A stretch of DNA of 64,000 nt from Escherichia coli. GTDB lineage: Bacteria > Pseudomonadota > Gammaproteobacteria > Enterobacterales > Enterobacteriaceae. The position numbers and the translations under genes were made by a program. Shown here one piece after another: positions 2,301 to 63,600 of this stretch. How positions within the stretch are numbered: position 1 is the first letter of the stretch; each line of letters begins with the position of its first letter. The stretch lies in NCBI RefSeq assembly GCF_044324875.1, contig NZ_CP172188.1. One strand, 5' to 3'. The notes under the pieces are model-generated. The model made no database searches, was not told the origin of the DNA, and was given only the letters and a program-made list of their open reading frames with translations.

Positions 2301-2846
2301 ATTCATTGCGTCATTAGGTAGCGGATTAGTTGGTTCGGCATTTGCCAGGGATTGAGATAAACGCGTGATTAATTTGACCATTCTCCGCTGCCGGAGGTTG
2401 TATCCTTCAGCTAAAGACAGGTAACTGGAAAGGGTATTGCTTAAGCGGGCGCGAAGCTGATCCGTGCCGTGACATTCAATAGCAACATCACGTAACGCAT
2501 CGACCAGTTCACGGTAAAGATGCGCTGCCATTCTGCAATCTGTGTCAGATGGTGCTTCATAAATTACCGTCAACCCCAGTTTTTCAGCCAGAGCGTGTTC
2601 TGCACGTGCTCCTGCGGACACATCCCATCCCTTAAGCAGATAGATCGCATCAGCAGAACGCACCATTGCCAGGCAAATATCCATGTATTCACTCTGGCAA
2701 AGGCCACCAGGTAACACAGCTGGATTCAGAACGATATGCCCTTCAGACATCAGCTCGCTCGCTTTCGCATTAAACGCCGCACGGTTGTAGTCTGGATAAC
2801 CAGTCATCGGCCCCGCGATGTAAATTTTCAAAACACGTTTCACCAT
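2154..2846 (-). CDS. DUF4406 / nucleoside 2-deoxyribosyltransferase-like protein; 3' part reads into the IS605 right end
   Basis: N-terminus MVKRVLKIYIAGPMTGYPDYNRAAFNAKASELMSEGHIVLNPA matches the DUF4406 pattern; start ATG at 2846 overlaps the stop of the upstream small ORF (TGATG); the frame below ~2300 runs through the IS hairpin and the tnpB 3' end. Confidence 0.45.
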   Translation of the reverse strand: MVKRVLKIYIAGPMTGYPDYNRAAFNAKASELMSEGHIVLNPAVLPGGLCQSEYMDICLAMVRSADAIYLLKGWDVSAGARAEHALAEKLGLTVIYEAPSDTDCRMAAHLYRELVDALRDVAIECHGTDQLRARLSNTLSSYLSLAEGYNLRQRRMVKLITRLSQSLANAEPTNPLPNDAMNYVTAPRPVGRGFPLLRPLPSVRRIYAGLHGQKRRVPPPLVPVFLFAGY

Positions 2847-3001
2847 CAAAATTTCCCCAAAATCGTGACGCAAAACATAAGCACTGCGAAAAGCTCAATA
2901 CCAAGCTCAAGTAGCGCCAACGCCCCGAAAAACAACACATAGAACAGGCCAATCTCATTCACAGATGGCTGGTGGATCGCACTTAAAGCTATAAGCATCA
3001 T
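2846..3001 (-). CDS. small hydrophobic protein (51 aa)
   Basis: GGAGGA Shine-Dalgarno before ATGATG at ~3001/2998; MMLIALSAIHQPSVNEIGLFYVLFFGALALLELGIELFAVLMFCVTILGKF; stop overlaps the start of the downstream gene. Confidence 0.35.
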   Translation of the reverse strand: MMLIALSAIHQPSVNEIGLFYVLFFGALALLELGIELFAVLMFCVTILGKF

Positions 3002-3037
3002 GTCCTCCAAACAGTTATCAGGAATGATATTAATGTT

Positions 3038-3050
3038 TTGTGTTAGAAAA
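3038..3050 (+). promoter_or_regulatory. copy of dispersed motif TTGTGTTAGAAAA, ~70 bp upstream of the Ref-like gene
   Basis: One of at least nine intergenic occurrences (see findings). Confidence 0.35.
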
Positions 3051-3118
3051 TCAATTTTGAATATCTAACTGTTTTGATCAATCATAGAAAAATAGCTGAA
3101 AAGTAAGAGGCAGCCATC

Positions 3119-3697
3119 ATGCAGAAACAGAGCTATTGGGAGAAACAGAGACAAAAAGCCATGCAAAAATTGGCTGACCCAGCCTGGCGAGAGGAACAAA
3201 GGGCAAAGCGCCTTCAACAAGCTCAACGCCAGCAGCAGCGAGCGAGAGAAAAAGCCGCATCGCCTGAATATCGGCAAAAGAAAATTGAAAAAGCAAAGCA
3301 ATATGAACAGCGGAGAAAAGATAAAGCTGTATCCGCTCCGCCCAAAAAAACACGCACGTCACGCGGCCTGAAGGGCAGATCACTCACAGCCGATGAACGC
3401 CGGATACAGACCGCTATCGGTACTCTCCCCTGCATTGCCTGCCATATTCACGGGCAACATAGCCCAGTGGTATCCCTGCACCATATCTTCGGGAGAACGG
3501 CAGAGAACGCACATAAATATGTCCTCCCTTTGTGTAAATGGCACCACCAGTACGCAGCGCCAGCCGAGGTCCGAGAACAATATCCCTGGCTGGTCCCTGT
3601 TCATGCTGATGGAAAAATAGGCGGAAAAGCAGATTTCATACGGCACAATGCCGATGAAATGGCGTTGTATCAGATGGCGATTGAATTAATAAATTAG
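3119..3697 (+). CDS. Ref-family (DUF968-like) HNH-type nuclease-like protein
   Basis: 192 aa; basic low-complexity N-terminus then LPCIACHIHGQ...SLHHIFG...LPLCKWHH Cys/His motifs; GAGG Shine-Dalgarno. Confidence 0.5.
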   Translation: MQKQSYWEKQRQKAMQKLADPAWREEQRAKRLQQAQRQQQRAREKAASPEYRQKKIEKAKQYEQRRKDKAVSAPPKKTRTSRGLKGRSLTADERRIQTAIGTLPCIACHIHGQHSPVVSLHHIFGRTAENAHKYVLPLCKWHHQYAAPAEVREQYPWLVPVHADGKIGGKADFIRHNADEMALYQMAIELIN

Positions 3698-3707
3698 TTT
3701 TCTAACA
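3698..3707 (-). promoter_or_regulatory. copy of dispersed motif (reverse orientation, TTTTCTAACA) just after the Ref-like gene
   Basis: Reverse complement of the TGTTAGAAAA core. Confidence 0.3.
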
Positions 3708-4196: not shown

Positions 4197-4301
4197 AATA
4201 CTGACTGTTGCGCCCTGGCATTATCGTGGGGTATATTTCTACGGCACCTTAGAAAAACGGGTGCCGGGATTGGAACCCCGGATAATGCAAAAGGCGACAC
4301 A

Positions 4302-4323
4302 GACGCCGAAAGCGTCTTTTCTT
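4302..4323 (+). terminator. rho-independent terminator candidate
   Basis: gacgc-cgaaa-gcgtc hairpin followed by ttttctt. Confidence 0.5.
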
Positions 4324-4329
4324 GTGTCA

Positions 4330-4508
4330 TGCCATCGCACAGCCATACGTAGCGTTTAGCTCAGAGATCAATGGTAGTGCTGGCTGGGCTGCCGAAAGGC
4401 AGGCCGGTTCCCTTTTGCGCCGGTAGTTCCAACCCAGTCAGTGCTACCGCCATTGAGATTGGAACCTCACGCGGTAGCTCCTTAAATTAGCAAAAGGAGG
4501 CTGCCAAT
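4330..4508 (+). promoter_or_regulatory. structured leader of antirepressor module A (differs from the leaders of modules B/C/D)
   Basis: Hairpins ctgcc-gaaa-ggcag (~4388-4401) and gttccaa...ttggaac (~4415-4458); AGGAGG before the ATG at 4509. Confidence 0.3.
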
Positions 4509-7607: not shown

Positions 7608-8363
7608 TTAACGCGTTTTTTCGCTGCTTTCCACTACCGGGGGATTTTTCCTCAGTGACTCTCCCTGAAGGACCACTCGGTGTGAGTTATGTACCAGTCT
7701 GTCCAGGATGGCATCTGCTGTTGTTGGGTTCTCCATCAGACCATGCCATTTATCTACCGGGAACTGGCTTACCACTATCGTGCTGCTTTGTCCGTAACGA
7801 TCCTCTATGAGCTCCAGAAGGTCATTACACTGGGCGTTACTTAACTGTTCCAGCCCCAGATCGTCCAGGATTAGAACCTGTATTTTTTGCAACTGTTTCA
7901 GATATTTCAGCCAGCTGCCATCAACACGTCCCTGAGCCAGTTGTTCCAGTAATCGCCCGGTTCTACAGTACCGGACGCTGTGTTTCTGTCGACATGCCTG
8001 TTCGCCCAGCGCATTGGCTATCCAGCTCTTGCCACATCCTGTCGGACCGGTTATCAGCAGGTTTTTCCTGTGGGTTATGTAGTGGCCGTTCAGCAGTTCT
8101 CTCATCTGTTCAGCCCGCAGACCTCTTGAGGCCGGATAGCGCAGCCCTTCCGGTGTTGCCTGGTATTTCAGGCCGGCATTTTTTCTCAACCGTGCCACAC
8201 GGCTGTTTTCCCTGCTCAGAAGCTCGTCATCAACCAGCAGCGTCAGCCTTTCCTCGAACGACAGTTCGTCGTAGGTCTGAGGCGTTTCCCGCTGCCGTAT
8301 CAGGCTCCCGGCCATCGCCGGGAGTTTCAGTTGGGTCAGTTTGTTTAACAGGTTATCACTCAT
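7608..8363 (-). CDS. istB: IS21-family transposition helper ATPase IstB
   Basis: Walker A GPTGCGKS, DExx-like LILDDLG; start set at MSDNLL with AAGGAA Shine-Dalgarno; the ORF track extends upstream to 8606. Confidence 0.85.
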   Translation of the reverse strand: MSDNLLNKLTQLKLPAMAGSLIRQRETPQTYDELSFEERLTLLVDDELLSRENSRVARLRKNAGLKYQATPEGLRYPASRGLRAEQMRELLNGHYITHRKNLLITGPTGCGKSWIANALGEQACRQKHSVRYCRTGRLLEQLAQGRVDGSWLKYLKQLQKIQVLILDDLGLEQLSNAQCNDLLELIEDRYGQSSTIVVSQFPVDKWHGLMENPTTADAILDRLVHNSHRVVLQGESLRKNPPVVESSEKTR

Positions 8364-9915: not shown

Positions 9916-10307
9916 AGTGCTCCTGGATTTTCTCTTTCTGGACATTGACGTCTCCACTGGTTTAAACACGGCAATGGAGACTGTGGTGAAAAGAGTTAAT
10001 TCCCGGAGTGACTGGCAGGATGCCAATCAATGATCGGAAGCATGCCAAATCGTGATCGATTGTGATGCCAAACTGTGATCGGAGATGGATGCCAAATCAT
10101 GATCGATTCGAATGCCAAACTGCGATCGATTCAGATGCCATTTTGCAGCCAAATTTCTGTCAAAAAATAAAATCCACAAAAAGTGGTTGACACTATTTTG
10201 GAAATCACAAACTGCACATAATCCATCGCGCTAACGGCTCCCGTTGAAGGTTCTTTTGACGATTAACTTTCAGCCGAAGCGCGGTAGGGAGTCATAACGC
10301 CAAAGCA

Positions 10308-27961: not shown

Positions 27962-27990
27962 TTGATCTTCCATGTTTTCAGGCTTATATT
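27962..27990 (+). promoter_or_regulatory. sigma70-like promoter of module B
   Basis: TTGATC - 17 bp - TATATT; identical sequence in module D and, reverse-complemented, in module C. Confidence 0.5.
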
Positions 27991-27996
27991 CACGCC

Positions 27997-28237
27997 GTTG
28001 CAGCAAATTCTGCGACCGGGTTTAGCAGCCTGAATGTACATGCGGACAACCGCAGATATCCGATATTGCGGTATTTTTGTGTCCGTAAAACCATGTTACG
28101 CCCGAATTATGGTGGGGCGTGATGGGGAGGCTTCGGCCTGCTGGTTTCATGTACGCCAGTCTGCTAACCCCGTCACGTCCTGCCACCCGTTTAGCAGCGG
28201 GTAGCAGGTTGTTAAACCTGTACATGAGGCCGTAACT
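27997..28237 (+). ncRNA. structured leader with an embedded c4-like antisense regulator and two target sites (module B)
   Basis: Elements TTAGCAG/GTACATG at 28022-28042 and 28191-28226 (the second abuts the GAGG Shine-Dalgarno) are complementary to CATGTAC/CTGCTAA at 28148-28167; the complementarity is kept by compensatory changes in modules C and D. Confidence 0.5.
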
Positions 28238-38325: not shown

Positions 38326-38566
38326 AGTTACGGCCTCATGTACAGGTTTAACAACCTGCTACCCGCTGTCAAACAGGTGGCAGGGCGTGACAGGGTTGAC
38401 AGACTGGCGTACATGAAACCAGCAGGCCGAAGCCTCCCCATCACGCCCCACCATAATTCGGGCGTAACGTGGTTTACGGACACAAAAATACCGCAATATC
38501 GGAAATCTGCGGATGTCCGCATGTACATTCAGGCTGTCAAACCTGGTCGCAGAATTTGCTACGACG
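38326..38566 (-). ncRNA. structured leader with a c4-like antisense regulator (module C)
   Basis: Minus-strand elements TTGACAG/GTACATG (targets) and CATGTAC/CTGTCAA (antisense) in the same arrangement as module B. Confidence 0.5.
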
Positions 38567-38571
38567 GCGTG

Positions 38572-38600
38572 AATATAAGCCTGAACATCTGGAAGATCAA
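38572..38600 (-). promoter_or_regulatory. sigma70-like promoter of module C
   Basis: Reverse complement of TTGATC-17-TATATT. Confidence 0.5.
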
Positions 38601-60800: not shown

Positions 60801-61799
60801 ATGCAATCACTGAATACTGTTACGGATCGCTTCTCCCTGGTAGAGAAAATCCGCAAACACACACCGCAGAACAACCGAAATTACGTCATTCAGTCGGTAC
60901 GAGACACATTCAACTCGCCAGAAACAAAAGAGCGTATCGCGCTGGGTGAGATGTATGGTTATTACGGTCATGGTCGCCGGGCGATGCACTATAACAAAAC
61001 GAAAAGCCTGAACTTGCCGGAAGTCTCTGTTGTGATGGTAGATGGGAAGCCTGTTGTATTGGAGAACGTGCCATCCAACAGGACTATCGACATTTCGATT
61101 GACGACAACGGCATTGTTACCCATACGCAGGAAATACTGGATACAGACACCGGGCGTATTGTTCAGGGGATGATAAATTCTGGCGCCGGTGGTTGGTCAT
61201 GGGCTACATCTGGTCCAGACTCATCGGTATCCCTGGTAAAGTCTTTCCACGGCTTTGATTACGTAACTGTGCCTAACTATATCAGCCTCGACAAGAAAAG
61301 CCTGATGCTTGAATCAGCAGAAGAGCGCGATGCGGCTATTCATGCAGCACTTATCGAACAAGGTTTTACCGATAACGCTGCCACGGATCTGGTTCACCAC
61401 TTTTCAGCGATGAAAAATCAGCAAGCCATGCTCGAGTCTGCACATCGTGAAGCCCTGGAATCAGAATTAATGCTCCTTGAAGCGGAAAATATGCAACTTC
61501 GCGACAAATTACGAAACCAGGCTGCAATGATGGAAAGCCAGGGCGAAGATGCGAAGAAATGCCGCCGTATTTTGCGTGATGCTATCCAGGAAATGCCTGT
61601 TTTTATCAGTGCAGAACAACGCCGGGCGCTCTGCCGTATGCAGTCTGAAGATGATGCTCGCATAGTGGCTGCGATGCTTGAATCTCTGGGGGCAAATGCG
61701 ACTTATGGCTTACCGATATCAGGCAAGAAAGAGGCGGAGTTATCACCGAAGGAGAACAAAAATACCACACCGTTACTCTTCGTTTCGCGACGGGCGTAA
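60801..61799 (+). CDS. prohead protease / scaffold-like protein (tentative)
   Basis: 332 aa; GEMYGYYGHG motif near the N-terminus and a helical C-terminal half. Confidence 0.4.
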   Translation: MQSLNTVTDRFSLVEKIRKHTPQNNRNYVIQSVRDTFNSPETKERIALGEMYGYYGHGRRAMHYNKTKSLNLPEVSVVMVDGKPVVLENVPSNRTIDISIDDNGIVTHTQEILDTDTGRIVQGMINSGAGGWSWATSGPDSSVSLVKSFHGFDYVTVPNYISLDKKSLMLESAEERDAAIHAALIEQGFTDNAATDLVHHFSAMKNQQAMLESAHREALESELMLLEAENMQLRDKLRNQAAMMESQGEDAKKCRRILRDAIQEMPVFISAEQRRALCRMQSEDDARIVAAMLESLGANATYGLPISGKKEAELSPKENKNTTPLLFVSRRA

Positions 61800-61815
61800 C
61801 CGTTACATGAAGTTA

Positions 61816-61828
61816 AATTTCTAACATA
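61816..61828 (-). promoter_or_regulatory. copy of dispersed motif (reverse orientation) after the protease-like gene
   Basis: AATTTCTAACATA = reverse complement of TATGTTAGAAATT. Confidence 0.3.
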
Positions 61829-61911
61829 GTGTATTTATATACACTGTTGATCCTGTTCGATGTGATCGAGTAGGATCGCGGTCACTGCTCCGGTAGCGAC
61901 TGCCAAAAAAG

Positions 61912-61937
61912 CAAAAGCCGCTGAGAAGCGGCTTTTG
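61912..61937 (+). terminator. rho-independent terminator candidate
   Basis: agccgc-tgagaa-gcggct followed by TTTT. Confidence 0.55.
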
Positions 61938-61999
61938 GGTGTATAAATCCTCGGACATAGATTTATACGGTAGATAGATTTTTTTCACGGAACTATCTG

Positions 62000-62962
62000 G
62001 TGAGTATTTTAAATTCAGTTTCAGTAACTTTCAACACTTCTGAGTATAAAAACAACACTGAATACCACAAAAAAATCAAAGGTCATCAGTTGAGTTTTTT
62101 TGCTCGCCACTGTGGTTTTCTTTCCCCTTCACATAGCGCCATTATTGCCGAGTTCGCCAACCTGGCAGGGGCTACCGATGAATACATGATCCGTCGTTCA
62201 TATGCTGATATGTCCGAGATTACAGGACGCAGTATTTCTACTGTGCGCCGGGCATTTGCTGAAGCGACGAAGTGCGGAATGCTTGTTAAGCAACATCAGG
62301 TAGCGAATAACAATGCTCAGGTGTGTAACGTATACCGGTTTACAACACAATTTCTCCACTTCATTCATGTAGCAATGGAGATAGGGGGTAAGCAGGGCAT
62401 CAAATTTGCGAACGCCACAAAACTGGTTAAGCAGTTGATTTCAAATGTTCGGTATTTTTTTGAAACTGGGAACCCCCTGTTCAAATTGAACAAGTCCCCC
62501 CATGTTCAAAATGAACAGCCAATAGAAAATAAGAGTCACTCTATAGCCAAAAGAAGAGAAAGATCATGCGCGGTTCAGCCAAAGGCTTCACCAGCAGATA
62601 GTTCCCAAGCGGATAATGGATTACTGGATAAAAAACCAGTAATCAGGGAGGAACATACCAACCACTGCCTGGCGGCGGCAAAAGCGAGAGCTGCAAAGCG
62701 TCGTTCAGACGAGGGGCACGCAAAACGGCAGGCTCTGTATCGTACCGCTGAAAAGCTGGCAAAAAAATTTGCATGGATACGTAGTGCCGCTACCGCAGTG
62801 AATAAGCCTAAACAATCCAGTGCCCTGGATTTCTCAATGGATTATTCTGGCTCCCAGGGGTGTGCAACCATTGGTGAAGCCTTTGACCTGATGAAACAGC
62901 GTGGCTATCGGTCTGAATTTGACCGGGAGGATTGGTCAATCCCTGCGGGATTTAGGGGATGA
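62000..62962 (+). CDS. HTH-containing protein, possibly a replication initiator or regulator
   Basis: 320 aa; MSEITGRSISTVRRAFAEATKCGML HTH-like; basic C-terminal region; preceded by palindromes and a GATC cluster. Confidence 0.35.
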   Translation: MSILNSVSVTFNTSEYKNNTEYHKKIKGHQLSFFARHCGFLSPSHSAIIAEFANLAGATDEYMIRRSYADMSEITGRSISTVRRAFAEATKCGMLVKQHQVANNNAQVCNVYRFTTQFLHFIHVAMEIGGKQGIKFANATKLVKQLISNVRYFFETGNPLFKLNKSPHVQNEQPIENKSHSIAKRRERSCAVQPKASPADSSQADNGLLDKKPVIREEHTNHCLAAAKARAAKRRSDEGHAKRQALYRTAEKLAKKFAWIRSAATAVNKPKQSSALDFSMDYSGSQGCATIGEAFDLMKQRGYRSEFDREDWSIPAGFRG

Positions 62963-63012
62963 CCTGTGTGTCTACAAAGCATCCCAATGATCGGAAAATG
63001 CTCGCTCGATGA

Positions 63013-63027
63013 TTTGTGTTAGAAAAT
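63013..63027 (+). promoter_or_regulatory. copy of dispersed motif upstream of the module D promoter
   Basis: TTTGTGTTAGAAAAT. Confidence 0.35.
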
Positions 63028-63100
63028 TAATTTGCTGTTTCTAAATCGGAATGTATGATCTGCATCATCGACTGAAGTCATCCATTGCTGAAATTTTTAG

Positions 63101-63129
63101 TTGATCTTCCATGTTTTCAGGCTTATATT
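63101..63129 (+). promoter_or_regulatory. sigma70-like promoter of module D
   Basis: TTGATC-17-TATATT, identical to module B. Confidence 0.5.
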
Positions 63130-63135
63130 CATGCC

Positions 63136-63375
63136 GTCGTAGCAAATTCTGCGACCAGGTTTGACAGCCTGAATGTTAGTGCGGACAACCGCAGATTTCC
63201 GATATTGCGGTATTTTTGTGTCCGTAAACCGCGTTACGCCCGAATTATGGTGGGGCGTGATGGGGAGGCTTCGGCCTGCTGGTTTCACTAACGCCAGTCT
63301 GTCAACCCTGTCACGTCCTGCCACCTGTTTGACAGCGGGTAGCAGGTTGTTAAACCTGTTAGTGAGGCCGTAACT
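63136..63375 (+). ncRNA. structured leader with a c4-like antisense regulator (module D)
   Basis: TTGACAG/GTTAGTG at 63161-63181 and 63329-63364; complementary CACTAAC/CTGTCAA at 63286-63305. Confidence 0.5.
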
Positions 63376-63600
63376 ATGGTTAATGCCAATCCTTGCTCAC
63401 GTCCAGAATTCATCTGGCGTTTCCACTCCCTGCAAAAACACTGCGATCACTTCGCAATTGCCGCAACCGAAAAAGAAGCCCGTTCTCTGATCCCTGATCA
63501 GCATGGTGTTCTTACTGGTCGTTTCTCTACTTCCCCACAACCAAACACTAATCCCTGGTATCGCAATATTACCAATCCCGGCATTGCGGAGGCACACTGA
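63376..63600 (+). CDS. small protein upstream of the antirepressor (Icd-position ORF, module D)
   Basis: 74 aa, near-identical to the module B copy. Confidence 0.65.
   Translation: MVNANPCSRPEFIWRFHSLQKHCDHFAIAATEKEARSLIPDQHGVLTGRFSTSPQPNTNPWYRNITNPGIAEAH

Follow-up and report, generated by a model that had tools for sequence, protein, structure and literature searches.

A candidate control region for the lytic replicon between pro and repL in a D6-like, P1-family phage-plasmid of Escherichia coli

The 64,000-nucleotide stretch of Escherichia coli DNA analysed here (contig NZ_CP172188.1 of assembly GCF_044324875.1, hereafter the window) carries a D6-like phage-plasmid of the P1 family, whose positions 61000-63400 are 100% identical to the E. 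coli plasmid pF374-2 and 95.6% identical to phage D6. In this part, a 200-bp spacer separates two plus-strand genes, a homologue of repL (62000-62962), the lytic replication initiator gene, and a homologue of pro (60801-61799), which is the last gene ahead of the spacer and is annotated as 'head processing protease, similar to P1 pro' in phage D6 and as 'head processing protein' in RefSeq plasmids. The spacer contains neither a conserved open reading frame (ORF) nor kilA. It holds an operator-like site, an AT-rich palindrome, a predicted promoter with three GATC sites, a two-way terminator and a second inverted repeat, and a strong antisense promoter is predicted just inside repL. The parts taken together form a genuine regulatory region with several components; it is a rearranged form of the known control region of the P1 lytic replicon and not an origin. 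With a probability of about two in three, positions 61800-62040 act as the control region of a lytic replicon composed of repL and an origin internal to it, by the mechanism proposed below.

By sequence homology, the 320-aa product of the downstream gene is a true RepL homologue. It aligns with P1 RepL over its full length at 28% identity (BLASTP, E 4e-27) and matches phrog_2418 at 3.9e-128, the same PHROG as P1 RepL, and its relatives carry the Pfam domain PF26868 Phage_P1_RepL. A helix-turn-helix (HTH) had been described in this protein from the ORF starting at 62000, and it is indeed recovered as a weak HTH_36 match (E 0.0026). Downstream of pro and repL, the annotation of D6 lists a c4 RNA, icd and an antirepressor gene; together with the RepL homology, it therefore places the features studied here between pro and the lytic replication gene, in the 200-bp spacer.

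The spacer was aligned across 22 distinct D6-like sequences from PLSDB and IMG/VR, including an E. fergusonii/Shigella dysenteriae group that is about 75% identical. Two far lineages, Enterobacter hormaechei-type contigs and a JGI metagenome contig, were added through their RepL proteins of 34-36% identity and share the gene order portal, pro, spacer, repL, CHAP-domain gene and darB-like gene. A search of IMG/VR and GTDB genomes for more diversity returned solely RepL of the D6, E. fergusonii and P1 types. In PLSDB, 577 plasmids matched 61000-63400 (at least 80% of this stretch in 110 cases), and almost all were non-mobilizable plasmids of about 90 kb from Escherichia, Shigella or Salmonella. 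The pro-repL spacer itself is present in 118 PLSDB plasmids, D6-like phage-plasmids being common in E. coli, Shigella and Salmonella.

The most constrained part of the spacer has the form of a promoter. The pattern TTGATY-N18-TAGGATC was found with exact spacing in every D6-like locus fetched, across four lineages and down to a RepL identity of 34%. The block common to all lineages reads CACTG-TTGAT(C/T), 18 unconserved nucleotides and (GGG)TAGGATC; its hexamers are conserved while spacer and flanks diverge. Two hexamers held at a fixed spacing around a free spacer are the signature of a sigma-70 promoter. Positions 61847-61876 on the plus strand (-35 TTGATC at 61847-61852, 18-nt spacer, -10 TAGGAT at 61871-61876) are thus likely to be the repL promoter, with a predicted start near 61883; the name PrepL is proposed, as the equivalent of P1 PkilA (P53). 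It agrees with the consensus at 8 of 12 positions, as does PkilA, TGGATC-17-TCTAAT, by manual count.

Three GATC sites fall on this promoter (61849-61877); the original prediction had noticed them as three sites within 29 bp. The first (61849-61852) is inside the -35 TTGATC, the second (61864) lies in the spacer and the third (61874-61877) overlaps the -10 TAGGAT. They are unequally kept: the -10 site is universal among the relatives, the -35 site is found in the D6, E. fergusonii and JGI types as well as in P1 but missing from the S. dysenteriae and Enterobacter types, and the spacer site is confined to the D6 group. Within 100 bp of the promoter, the loci compared contain 3, 2, 1, 2-3 and 4 GATC against 0.4-0.7 expected, and two promoter-proximal sites are invariant in P1-type loci. 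This recurrent enrichment at shifting positions suggests that GATC has been selected for at the promoter. The density exceeds background locally (3 in 100 bp against 0.39 expected, P = 0.007) and not across the window, in which 248 GATC are observed for 247 expected. Three sites in 29 bp are expected 1.0 times per window, with a probability of 0.61 for at least one such cluster; since a single one occurs, the cluster is not significant at that scale. The idea of a Dam-regulated promoter therefore stands in part. It draws support from the conserved sigma-70-like promoter with GATC in both hexamers, from the enrichment in four D6-like lineages and from three Dam sites in the P1 record, and it is weakened by the fact that the -10 GATC alone is universal. 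Methylation-dependent activity of the sense promoter is, from these comparisons, a tentative proposal that falls a little short of even odds. The three sites also lie in an imperfect 29-bp palindrome of their own, which was considered as a conserved RNA hairpin and rejected, its left arm varying without compensation in the relatives.

The most informative element of the region had escaped the original prediction. At 61810-61826 on the plus strand, abutting the AT-rich palindrome, lies the site AAGTTAAATTTCTAACA, a copy of the asymmetric motif AAATTANTTTTCTAACA (consensus AAATTAnTTTTCTAACA) that the window contains 9 times, shuffled sequences giving 1.1 +/- 1.1 and none of 100 shuffles reaching 9. 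Its core TTTCTAAC occurs 15 times in pF374-2 for 2.9 expected. Candidate operators are located at 3041, 3691, 18847, 27899, 29838, 38647, 61810 and 63017 of the window, and at 8101, 8279, 22973, 40913, 50823, 92590, 93841 and 93997 of pF374-2. Copies precede the c1 homologue and each c4 module and flank ref on both sides, and the C1 operators of P1 are distributed in the same way over c1, ref and c4. Some are paired inversely as GTTAGA-N16-TCTAAC, like the bivalent operators of P1. The P1 operator ATTGCTCTAATAAATTT has its 3' half in common with the reverse complement of the D6-type motif, TGTTAGAAAAnTAATTT; the complete P1 sequence is not found in the window even with 3 mismatches allowed, as would be expected if the specificity of the repressor differs. 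The C1 homologue is a distant one (E 8e-8); it is 345 aa long and adjoins the pacB-equivalent terminase gene.

In the spacer, the core TTTTCTAA is kept in all four lineages at a fixed 27 nt ahead of the promoter block. Because of its recurrence, its P1-like distribution, the shared 3' half and the existence of a C1 homologue, the site at 61810-61826 is read as the D6-type equivalent of Op53, a candidate C1 operator for which the name OrepL is proposed. It lies clear of the promoter, with 20 bp between it and the -35, a geometry that Omat of P1 also shows relative to Pmat. As a separate observation, each a1b1 module of the window carries the operator motif about 85-105 nt upstream (27899, 38647 and 63017). 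The 33 nt at 61807-61839 are moreover 88-91% identical to the region of the phage T5 promoter P15b, upstream of a tRNA-Ser; this likeness was judged to be due to chance, its E value being 0.003-0.1 and the equivalent of the -35 being unconserved in D6-like relatives. Small ORFs of the spacer, with 5 codons at 61807 and 55 aa on the minus strand, were likewise discarded as unconserved and broken by indels.

Between the predicted promoter and repL lies the terminator that the original prediction had placed in the region, a two-way intrinsic terminator at 61912-61937 (stem CAAAAGCCGCT / AGCGGCTTTTG). Its stem is conserved and its loop variable, with an A-run before and a T-run after, and it is found 35-50 nt past the -10 in all lineages. 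In the window as in the three other lineages, the terminator scan scores the minus strand. The T-run is stronger on that strand, and on the plus strand three of the four lineages have a weak U-tract.

Facing this terminator is the antisense promoter TTGAAA-17-TAAAAT (62034-62006, minus strand), which lies within repL codons 3-12 and, with 10 of 12 consensus matches, is the best promoter-like site of the region. It is proposed as the equivalent of P53as (PaskilA) of P1. The whole site is identical in the E. fergusonii type, and neither hexamer varies among the aligned sequences of the D6 and E. fergusonii/S. dysenteriae groups. In repL codons 1-20, all 11 residues conserved between the window and E. 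fergusonii use an identical codon (synonymous identity 1.0), against 0.2-0.6 in later codons. The Enterobacter and JGI types have another conserved minus-strand promoter, TTGCGY-16-TATAAT, just ahead of repL. From the positions of promoter and terminator, a countertranscript of about 95 nt is predicted (61999 to about 61904, minus strand), antisense to the leader, the Shine-Dalgarno sequence and the start codon of repL. It would fold into three stem-loops (-30.5 kcal/mol, z = -6.3), and its 138-nt E. fergusonii equivalent into four (z = -8.5). By prediction, then, an antisense promoter with an RNA ending at the upstream terminator, a P1-type feature, is present. No Rfam family was found in 61600-62200, even at E values up to 10, and elsewhere in the window only the c4 and isrK families were detected.

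The predicted operator, promoters and terminator have counterparts in P1. At a single locus, the P1 record contains three 'Dam methylation sites within the regulatory region of kilA' in 23 bp, the third of them in the -35 TGGATC, together with PkilA (P53), the C1 operator OrepL (Op53) and PaskilA (P53as), whose antisense start is mapped 20 nt inside kilA. A two-way terminator-like hairpin is visible in the sequence just upstream. P1 and the D6-like elements have in common an asymmetric C1-type operator (in the D6-like elements a candidate one) at a weak sigma-70 promoter, predicted in the D6-like elements, with a RepL homologue downstream, GATC at an identical offset in a -35 of the form T[T/G]GATC, a cluster of two to four GATC at the promoter, a strong antisense promoter just inside the first gene, a two-way terminator bounding the antisense RNA, and origin-like repeats with an A-rich GATC stretch inside repL. 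The parts are thus the same as those of P1, and their order differs. The D6-like elements lack kilA and have the antisense promoter in repL itself; their operator TGTTAGAAAAnTAATTT is upstream of the -35, whereas the P1 operator ATTGCTCTAATAAATTT is over the -10. In addition, their terminator lies between promoter and gene, so that the countertranscript would cover the leader and start codon and not the promoter, by which promoter occlusion would be excluded as its mode of action. The antisense RNA of P1 reportedly measures about 180 nt, against the roughly 95 nt predicted here. Finally, the control region comes after pro in D6-like elements and after ant in P1.

The mechanism proposed for 61800-62040 runs as follows. 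In the prophage state, a C1-type repressor bound to 61810-61826 would keep the adjacent weak promoter, with its start near 61883, shut. After derepression, transcripts would have to pass the hairpin at 61912-61937, with its poor plus-strand U-tract, to reach repL. In parallel, the strong and probably constitutive promoter at 62034-62006 would produce the structured minus-strand RNA, stopping at the same hairpin. This countertranscript, whose sequence complements the leader, ribosome-binding site and start codon of repL, would thereby damp repL expression, like P53as RNA in P1, and the second inverted repeat would form one of its stem-loops. With GATC in both the -35 and the -10, the sense promoter might also be controlled by Dam methylation or SeqA.

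Several observations weigh against this proposal. The operator is not placed over the promoter as Op53 is, and repression from an upstream position is assumed. The sense promoter is weak, with 8 of 12 matches and an 18-nt spacer, and is separated from repL by a terminator. The JGI lineage has a long plus-strand T-run at that terminator, such that most transcripts may stop there, which would favour a small-RNA gene. The GATC cluster is at chance level window-wide, and S. dysenteriae-type elements retain a single site. The covariation discussed below comes from few independent events, namely one split between groups and about three C/T changes at one pair. To these is added a second weak promoter-like site downstream of the terminator.

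This last site, TTGGGT-17-TAGATT (61935-61963, plus strand; 7/12 by manual count), is the basis of an alternative in which it drives repL and the overlapping inverted repeat GTATAAATC-N10-GATTTATAC is a protein operator, for instance for autorepression by a RepL dimer. The palindrome, the GATC sites and the upstream terminator would then be the mere 3' untranslated end of a late pro transcript. The inverted repeat itself had been correctly reported at 61941-61968, and it spans the spacer and -10 of this site. Its own spacer has a fixed length of 10 bp and is otherwise variable, yet the TA that begins TAGATT is invariant; its half-sites change symmetrically between groups, from TATAAATC to GATAAATC on both arms; the E. 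fergusonii equivalent of the promoter, TTGAGG-18-TAGATT, scores 8/12; and initiators such as RepE of F and RepA of pSC101 often repress themselves through inverted repeats.

The behaviour of the repeat nevertheless fits an RNA hairpin better. As minus-strand RNA, the 10-bp stem at 61940-61969, which contains the repeat and is proposed as stem-loop 2 of the countertranscript, is paired in 100 of 100 cells (10 distinct sequences), with changes from U-A to G-C, from G-C to U-G and from U-G to U-A. As plus-strand RNA, the same stem is paired in 91 of 100 cells, two pairs holding on the minus strand only. Variation in the D6 group is locally concentrated in the loop, where 5 of 8 columns vary, against 40 of 253 elsewhere (P = 0.005). 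A multi-copy operator was rejected, the repeat being unique in the 94-kb plasmid with a half-site that is not enriched and does not recur in or near the proposed origin. The full pairing on the minus strand only, the variable loop and the uniqueness of the repeat favour an antisense RNA hairpin over a protein operator. Furthermore, the repeat is found only in the D6 and E. fergusonii groups and is absent from the Enterobacter and JGI lineages. The autorepression alternative also fails to explain the operator-promoter unit kept upstream in all lineages and why the promoter-like site at 61935-61963 has no C1-type site. It is considered unlikely, at odds of the order of one in several.

In a second alternative, operator, promoter and terminator constitute a C1-controlled small-RNA gene of about 55-70 nt (approximately 61883-61940, plus strand) and not the leader of repL. 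This RNA would converge with the countertranscript at the shared terminator, and repL would need read-through or an interplay between the RNAs. Such a gene would account for the short distance of 35-50 nt from -10 to hairpin kept in all lineages, for the full plus-strand T-run of the JGI lineage and for the small hairpin and A-rich linker that precede the terminator in each lineage. The sequence between -10 and terminator is, however, poorly conserved across lineages and shows no evident shared seed, the plus-strand U-tract is weak in the other three lineages, no Rfam family was matched, and the homologous P1 promoter is the promoter of the repL mRNA. On balance, a dedicated small-RNA gene is improbable, and slightly more so than autorepression by RepL.

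A bolder form would combine this idea with the predicted antisense RNA. Here, a C1-controlled and Dam-sensitive small plus-strand RNA of about 60 nt and a constitutive countertranscript of about 95-180 nt, converging on one shared two-way terminator, would together gate the lytic replicon. If so, repL would be expressed only if termination at this hairpin is overcome by read-through or by an interplay of the two RNAs, and the layout would be unlike that of P1, whose antisense RNA crosses the promoter itself. This arrangement is speculative and is given about as little credit as the RepL operator.

The original prediction had offered an origin as one explanation of the GATC cluster and palindromes. 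The lytic origin is more plausibly sought inside repL, as in P1, whose GenBank annotation places it within the gene. Two 20-bp repeats, each composed of CCCCC and TGTTCA-N3-TGAACA (62473-62517), are followed by an A-rich run to a GATC (62518-62565), and this stretch is conserved in divergent relatives with a synonymous-site identity of 0.7-0.9. P1 repL contains a homologous arrangement, CCCCCATGTCAAAATGATA / CCCCCTGTCAGGATGAC and then AAAAAAACAAAAAGATC. RepL-driven replication in P1 requires AT2, an A/T-rich stretch of repL with the 13-mer-like motif GATCTTTTTGTTT at its 3' end (PMC9948254), and the P1 run AAAAAAACAAAAAGATC ends in the complement of GATCTTTTTGTTT. The core of the lytic origin is thus likely to lie at 62473-62565, with the two repeats as candidate RepL-binding sites. 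The same study (PMC9948254) names AT-rich regions, an IHF site and DnaA boxes in P1 oriL and does not name these repeats.

An origin in the spacer itself, lytic or controlled by Dam and SeqA, is accordingly very improbable: the region does adjoin an initiator gene, has its three GATC beside an AT-rich palindrome and contains TTATATACA (61835-61843), one mismatch from the relaxed DnaA-box consensus TTWTNCACA, but this 9-mer is single, no iterons or direct-repeat family occur in 61800-61990, the GATC cluster is at chance level, two of its three sites and the left palindrome arm are unconserved, the conserved pattern is of the promoter type, and the homologous repeats and A-rich GATC stretch are constrained at synonymous sites inside repL. 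Nor do the palindromes behave as origin-type elements, the first being lineage-specific and the second having the pattern of a minus-strand RNA hairpin.

The first of them, AGTGTAT-TTAT-ATACACT, is present at 61828-61845 as had been claimed and forms the core of an AT-rich palindrome at 61826-61847 (plus strand). It is conserved in the D6 and E. fergusonii groups only; the Enterobacter-type and JGI lineages lack its left arm and retain the CACTG of its right arm beside the -35. As read from the alignment, the variants T61827C and A61833G retain pairing as plus-strand RNA only. The palindrome might fold as a hairpin in the terminal part of the pro transcript, serve the promoter as an AT-rich upstream element, or be a protein site particular to these lineages. 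A P1 late-promoter box (AAGTGACTT-N4-TANNNT in the P1 record) was rejected since it needs 3 mismatches and true matches exist elsewhere in the window, and a repeated protein site since no second copy is present there. A LexA box was rejected without computation: 16 of 20 consensus positions match, and the mismatches fall at the critical CTG/CAG positions.

With regard to chance, inverted repeats with 7-bp arms are common in the window (72 against about 28 in shuffles), and those with 9-bp arms are rarer, with 30 nested hits against 3.6 in shuffles, an excess of about eightfold. The four consecutive hairpins of 61800-61945 fold with z = -8.5 against shuffles.

The region also resembles other known control systems. 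Promoters made Dam-sensitive by a GATC in a hexamer include the P1 cre promoters, the IS10 transposase promoter pIN and dnaA P2. The predicted promoter described here has GATC in both hexamers, and P1 has Dam sites annotated in the cre and kilA regulatory regions; the difference is that among D6-like relatives only the -10 GATC is universal. Control of initiator genes by countertranscripts is known from CopA/repA of R1 and from the Inc RNA of ColIb-P9. The likeness consists in a short, probably constitutive, multi-hairpin predicted RNA opposite the leader and translation start of an initiator gene, with one hairpin having a variable loop. The present system differs in being a phage lytic replicon under a repressor and not a plasmid copy-number control, and in that its RNA is predicted from sequence.

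The immunity and lytic-replication circuitry of D6-like elements has so far been inferred by analogy with P1 only. The present analysis supplies a candidate consensus for the D6-type C1 operator, a likely repL promoter with a predicted countertranscript, and a likely position of oriL inside repL. The finding that the parts of P1 are retained and re-ordered bears on the mode of antisense action, that is, on leader pairing as opposed to promoter interference. A possible use lies in RepL-based amplification tools.

A few further observations concern the element as a whole. The window and pF374-2 are collinear in blocks only, with offsets that differ between blocks; the source element is therefore a mosaic relative of pF374-2 and not pF374-2 itself. 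The c4-icd-antirepressor module that follows repL is absent from E. fergusonii-type and Enterobacter-type elements. Two of the relatives look like decaying copies. In S. dysenteriae NZ_CP026818 (fetched locus 2738-3699), repL is broken into two ORFs. In the 169-kb Salmonella plasmid pSa1423-160k (fetched locus 2470-2770), insertions are found in the palindrome loop and in the inverted-repeat spacer, and neither pro nor repL is listed in the PLSDB gene table, a table that is incomplete.

Rfam models identified four C4 antisense-RNA genes, three c4-a1b1 target modules and one isrK in the 64-kb window. The C4-related coordinates are 4244-4454, 27984-28190, 38373-38578 (minus strand) and 63123-63328. 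They would correspond to several immI-like antirepressor modules in one element; in the P1 record, a single c4 is annotated. Finally, the densest GATC locus of the window, with 5 sites per 200 bp, is at 10021-10140. It consists of six GATC-containing direct repeats, about 23 bp long (ATGCCAAAyyGTGATCGr...), adjoins an ORF with Mu-transposase C-terminal and rve domains, and resembles an iteron or centromere array.

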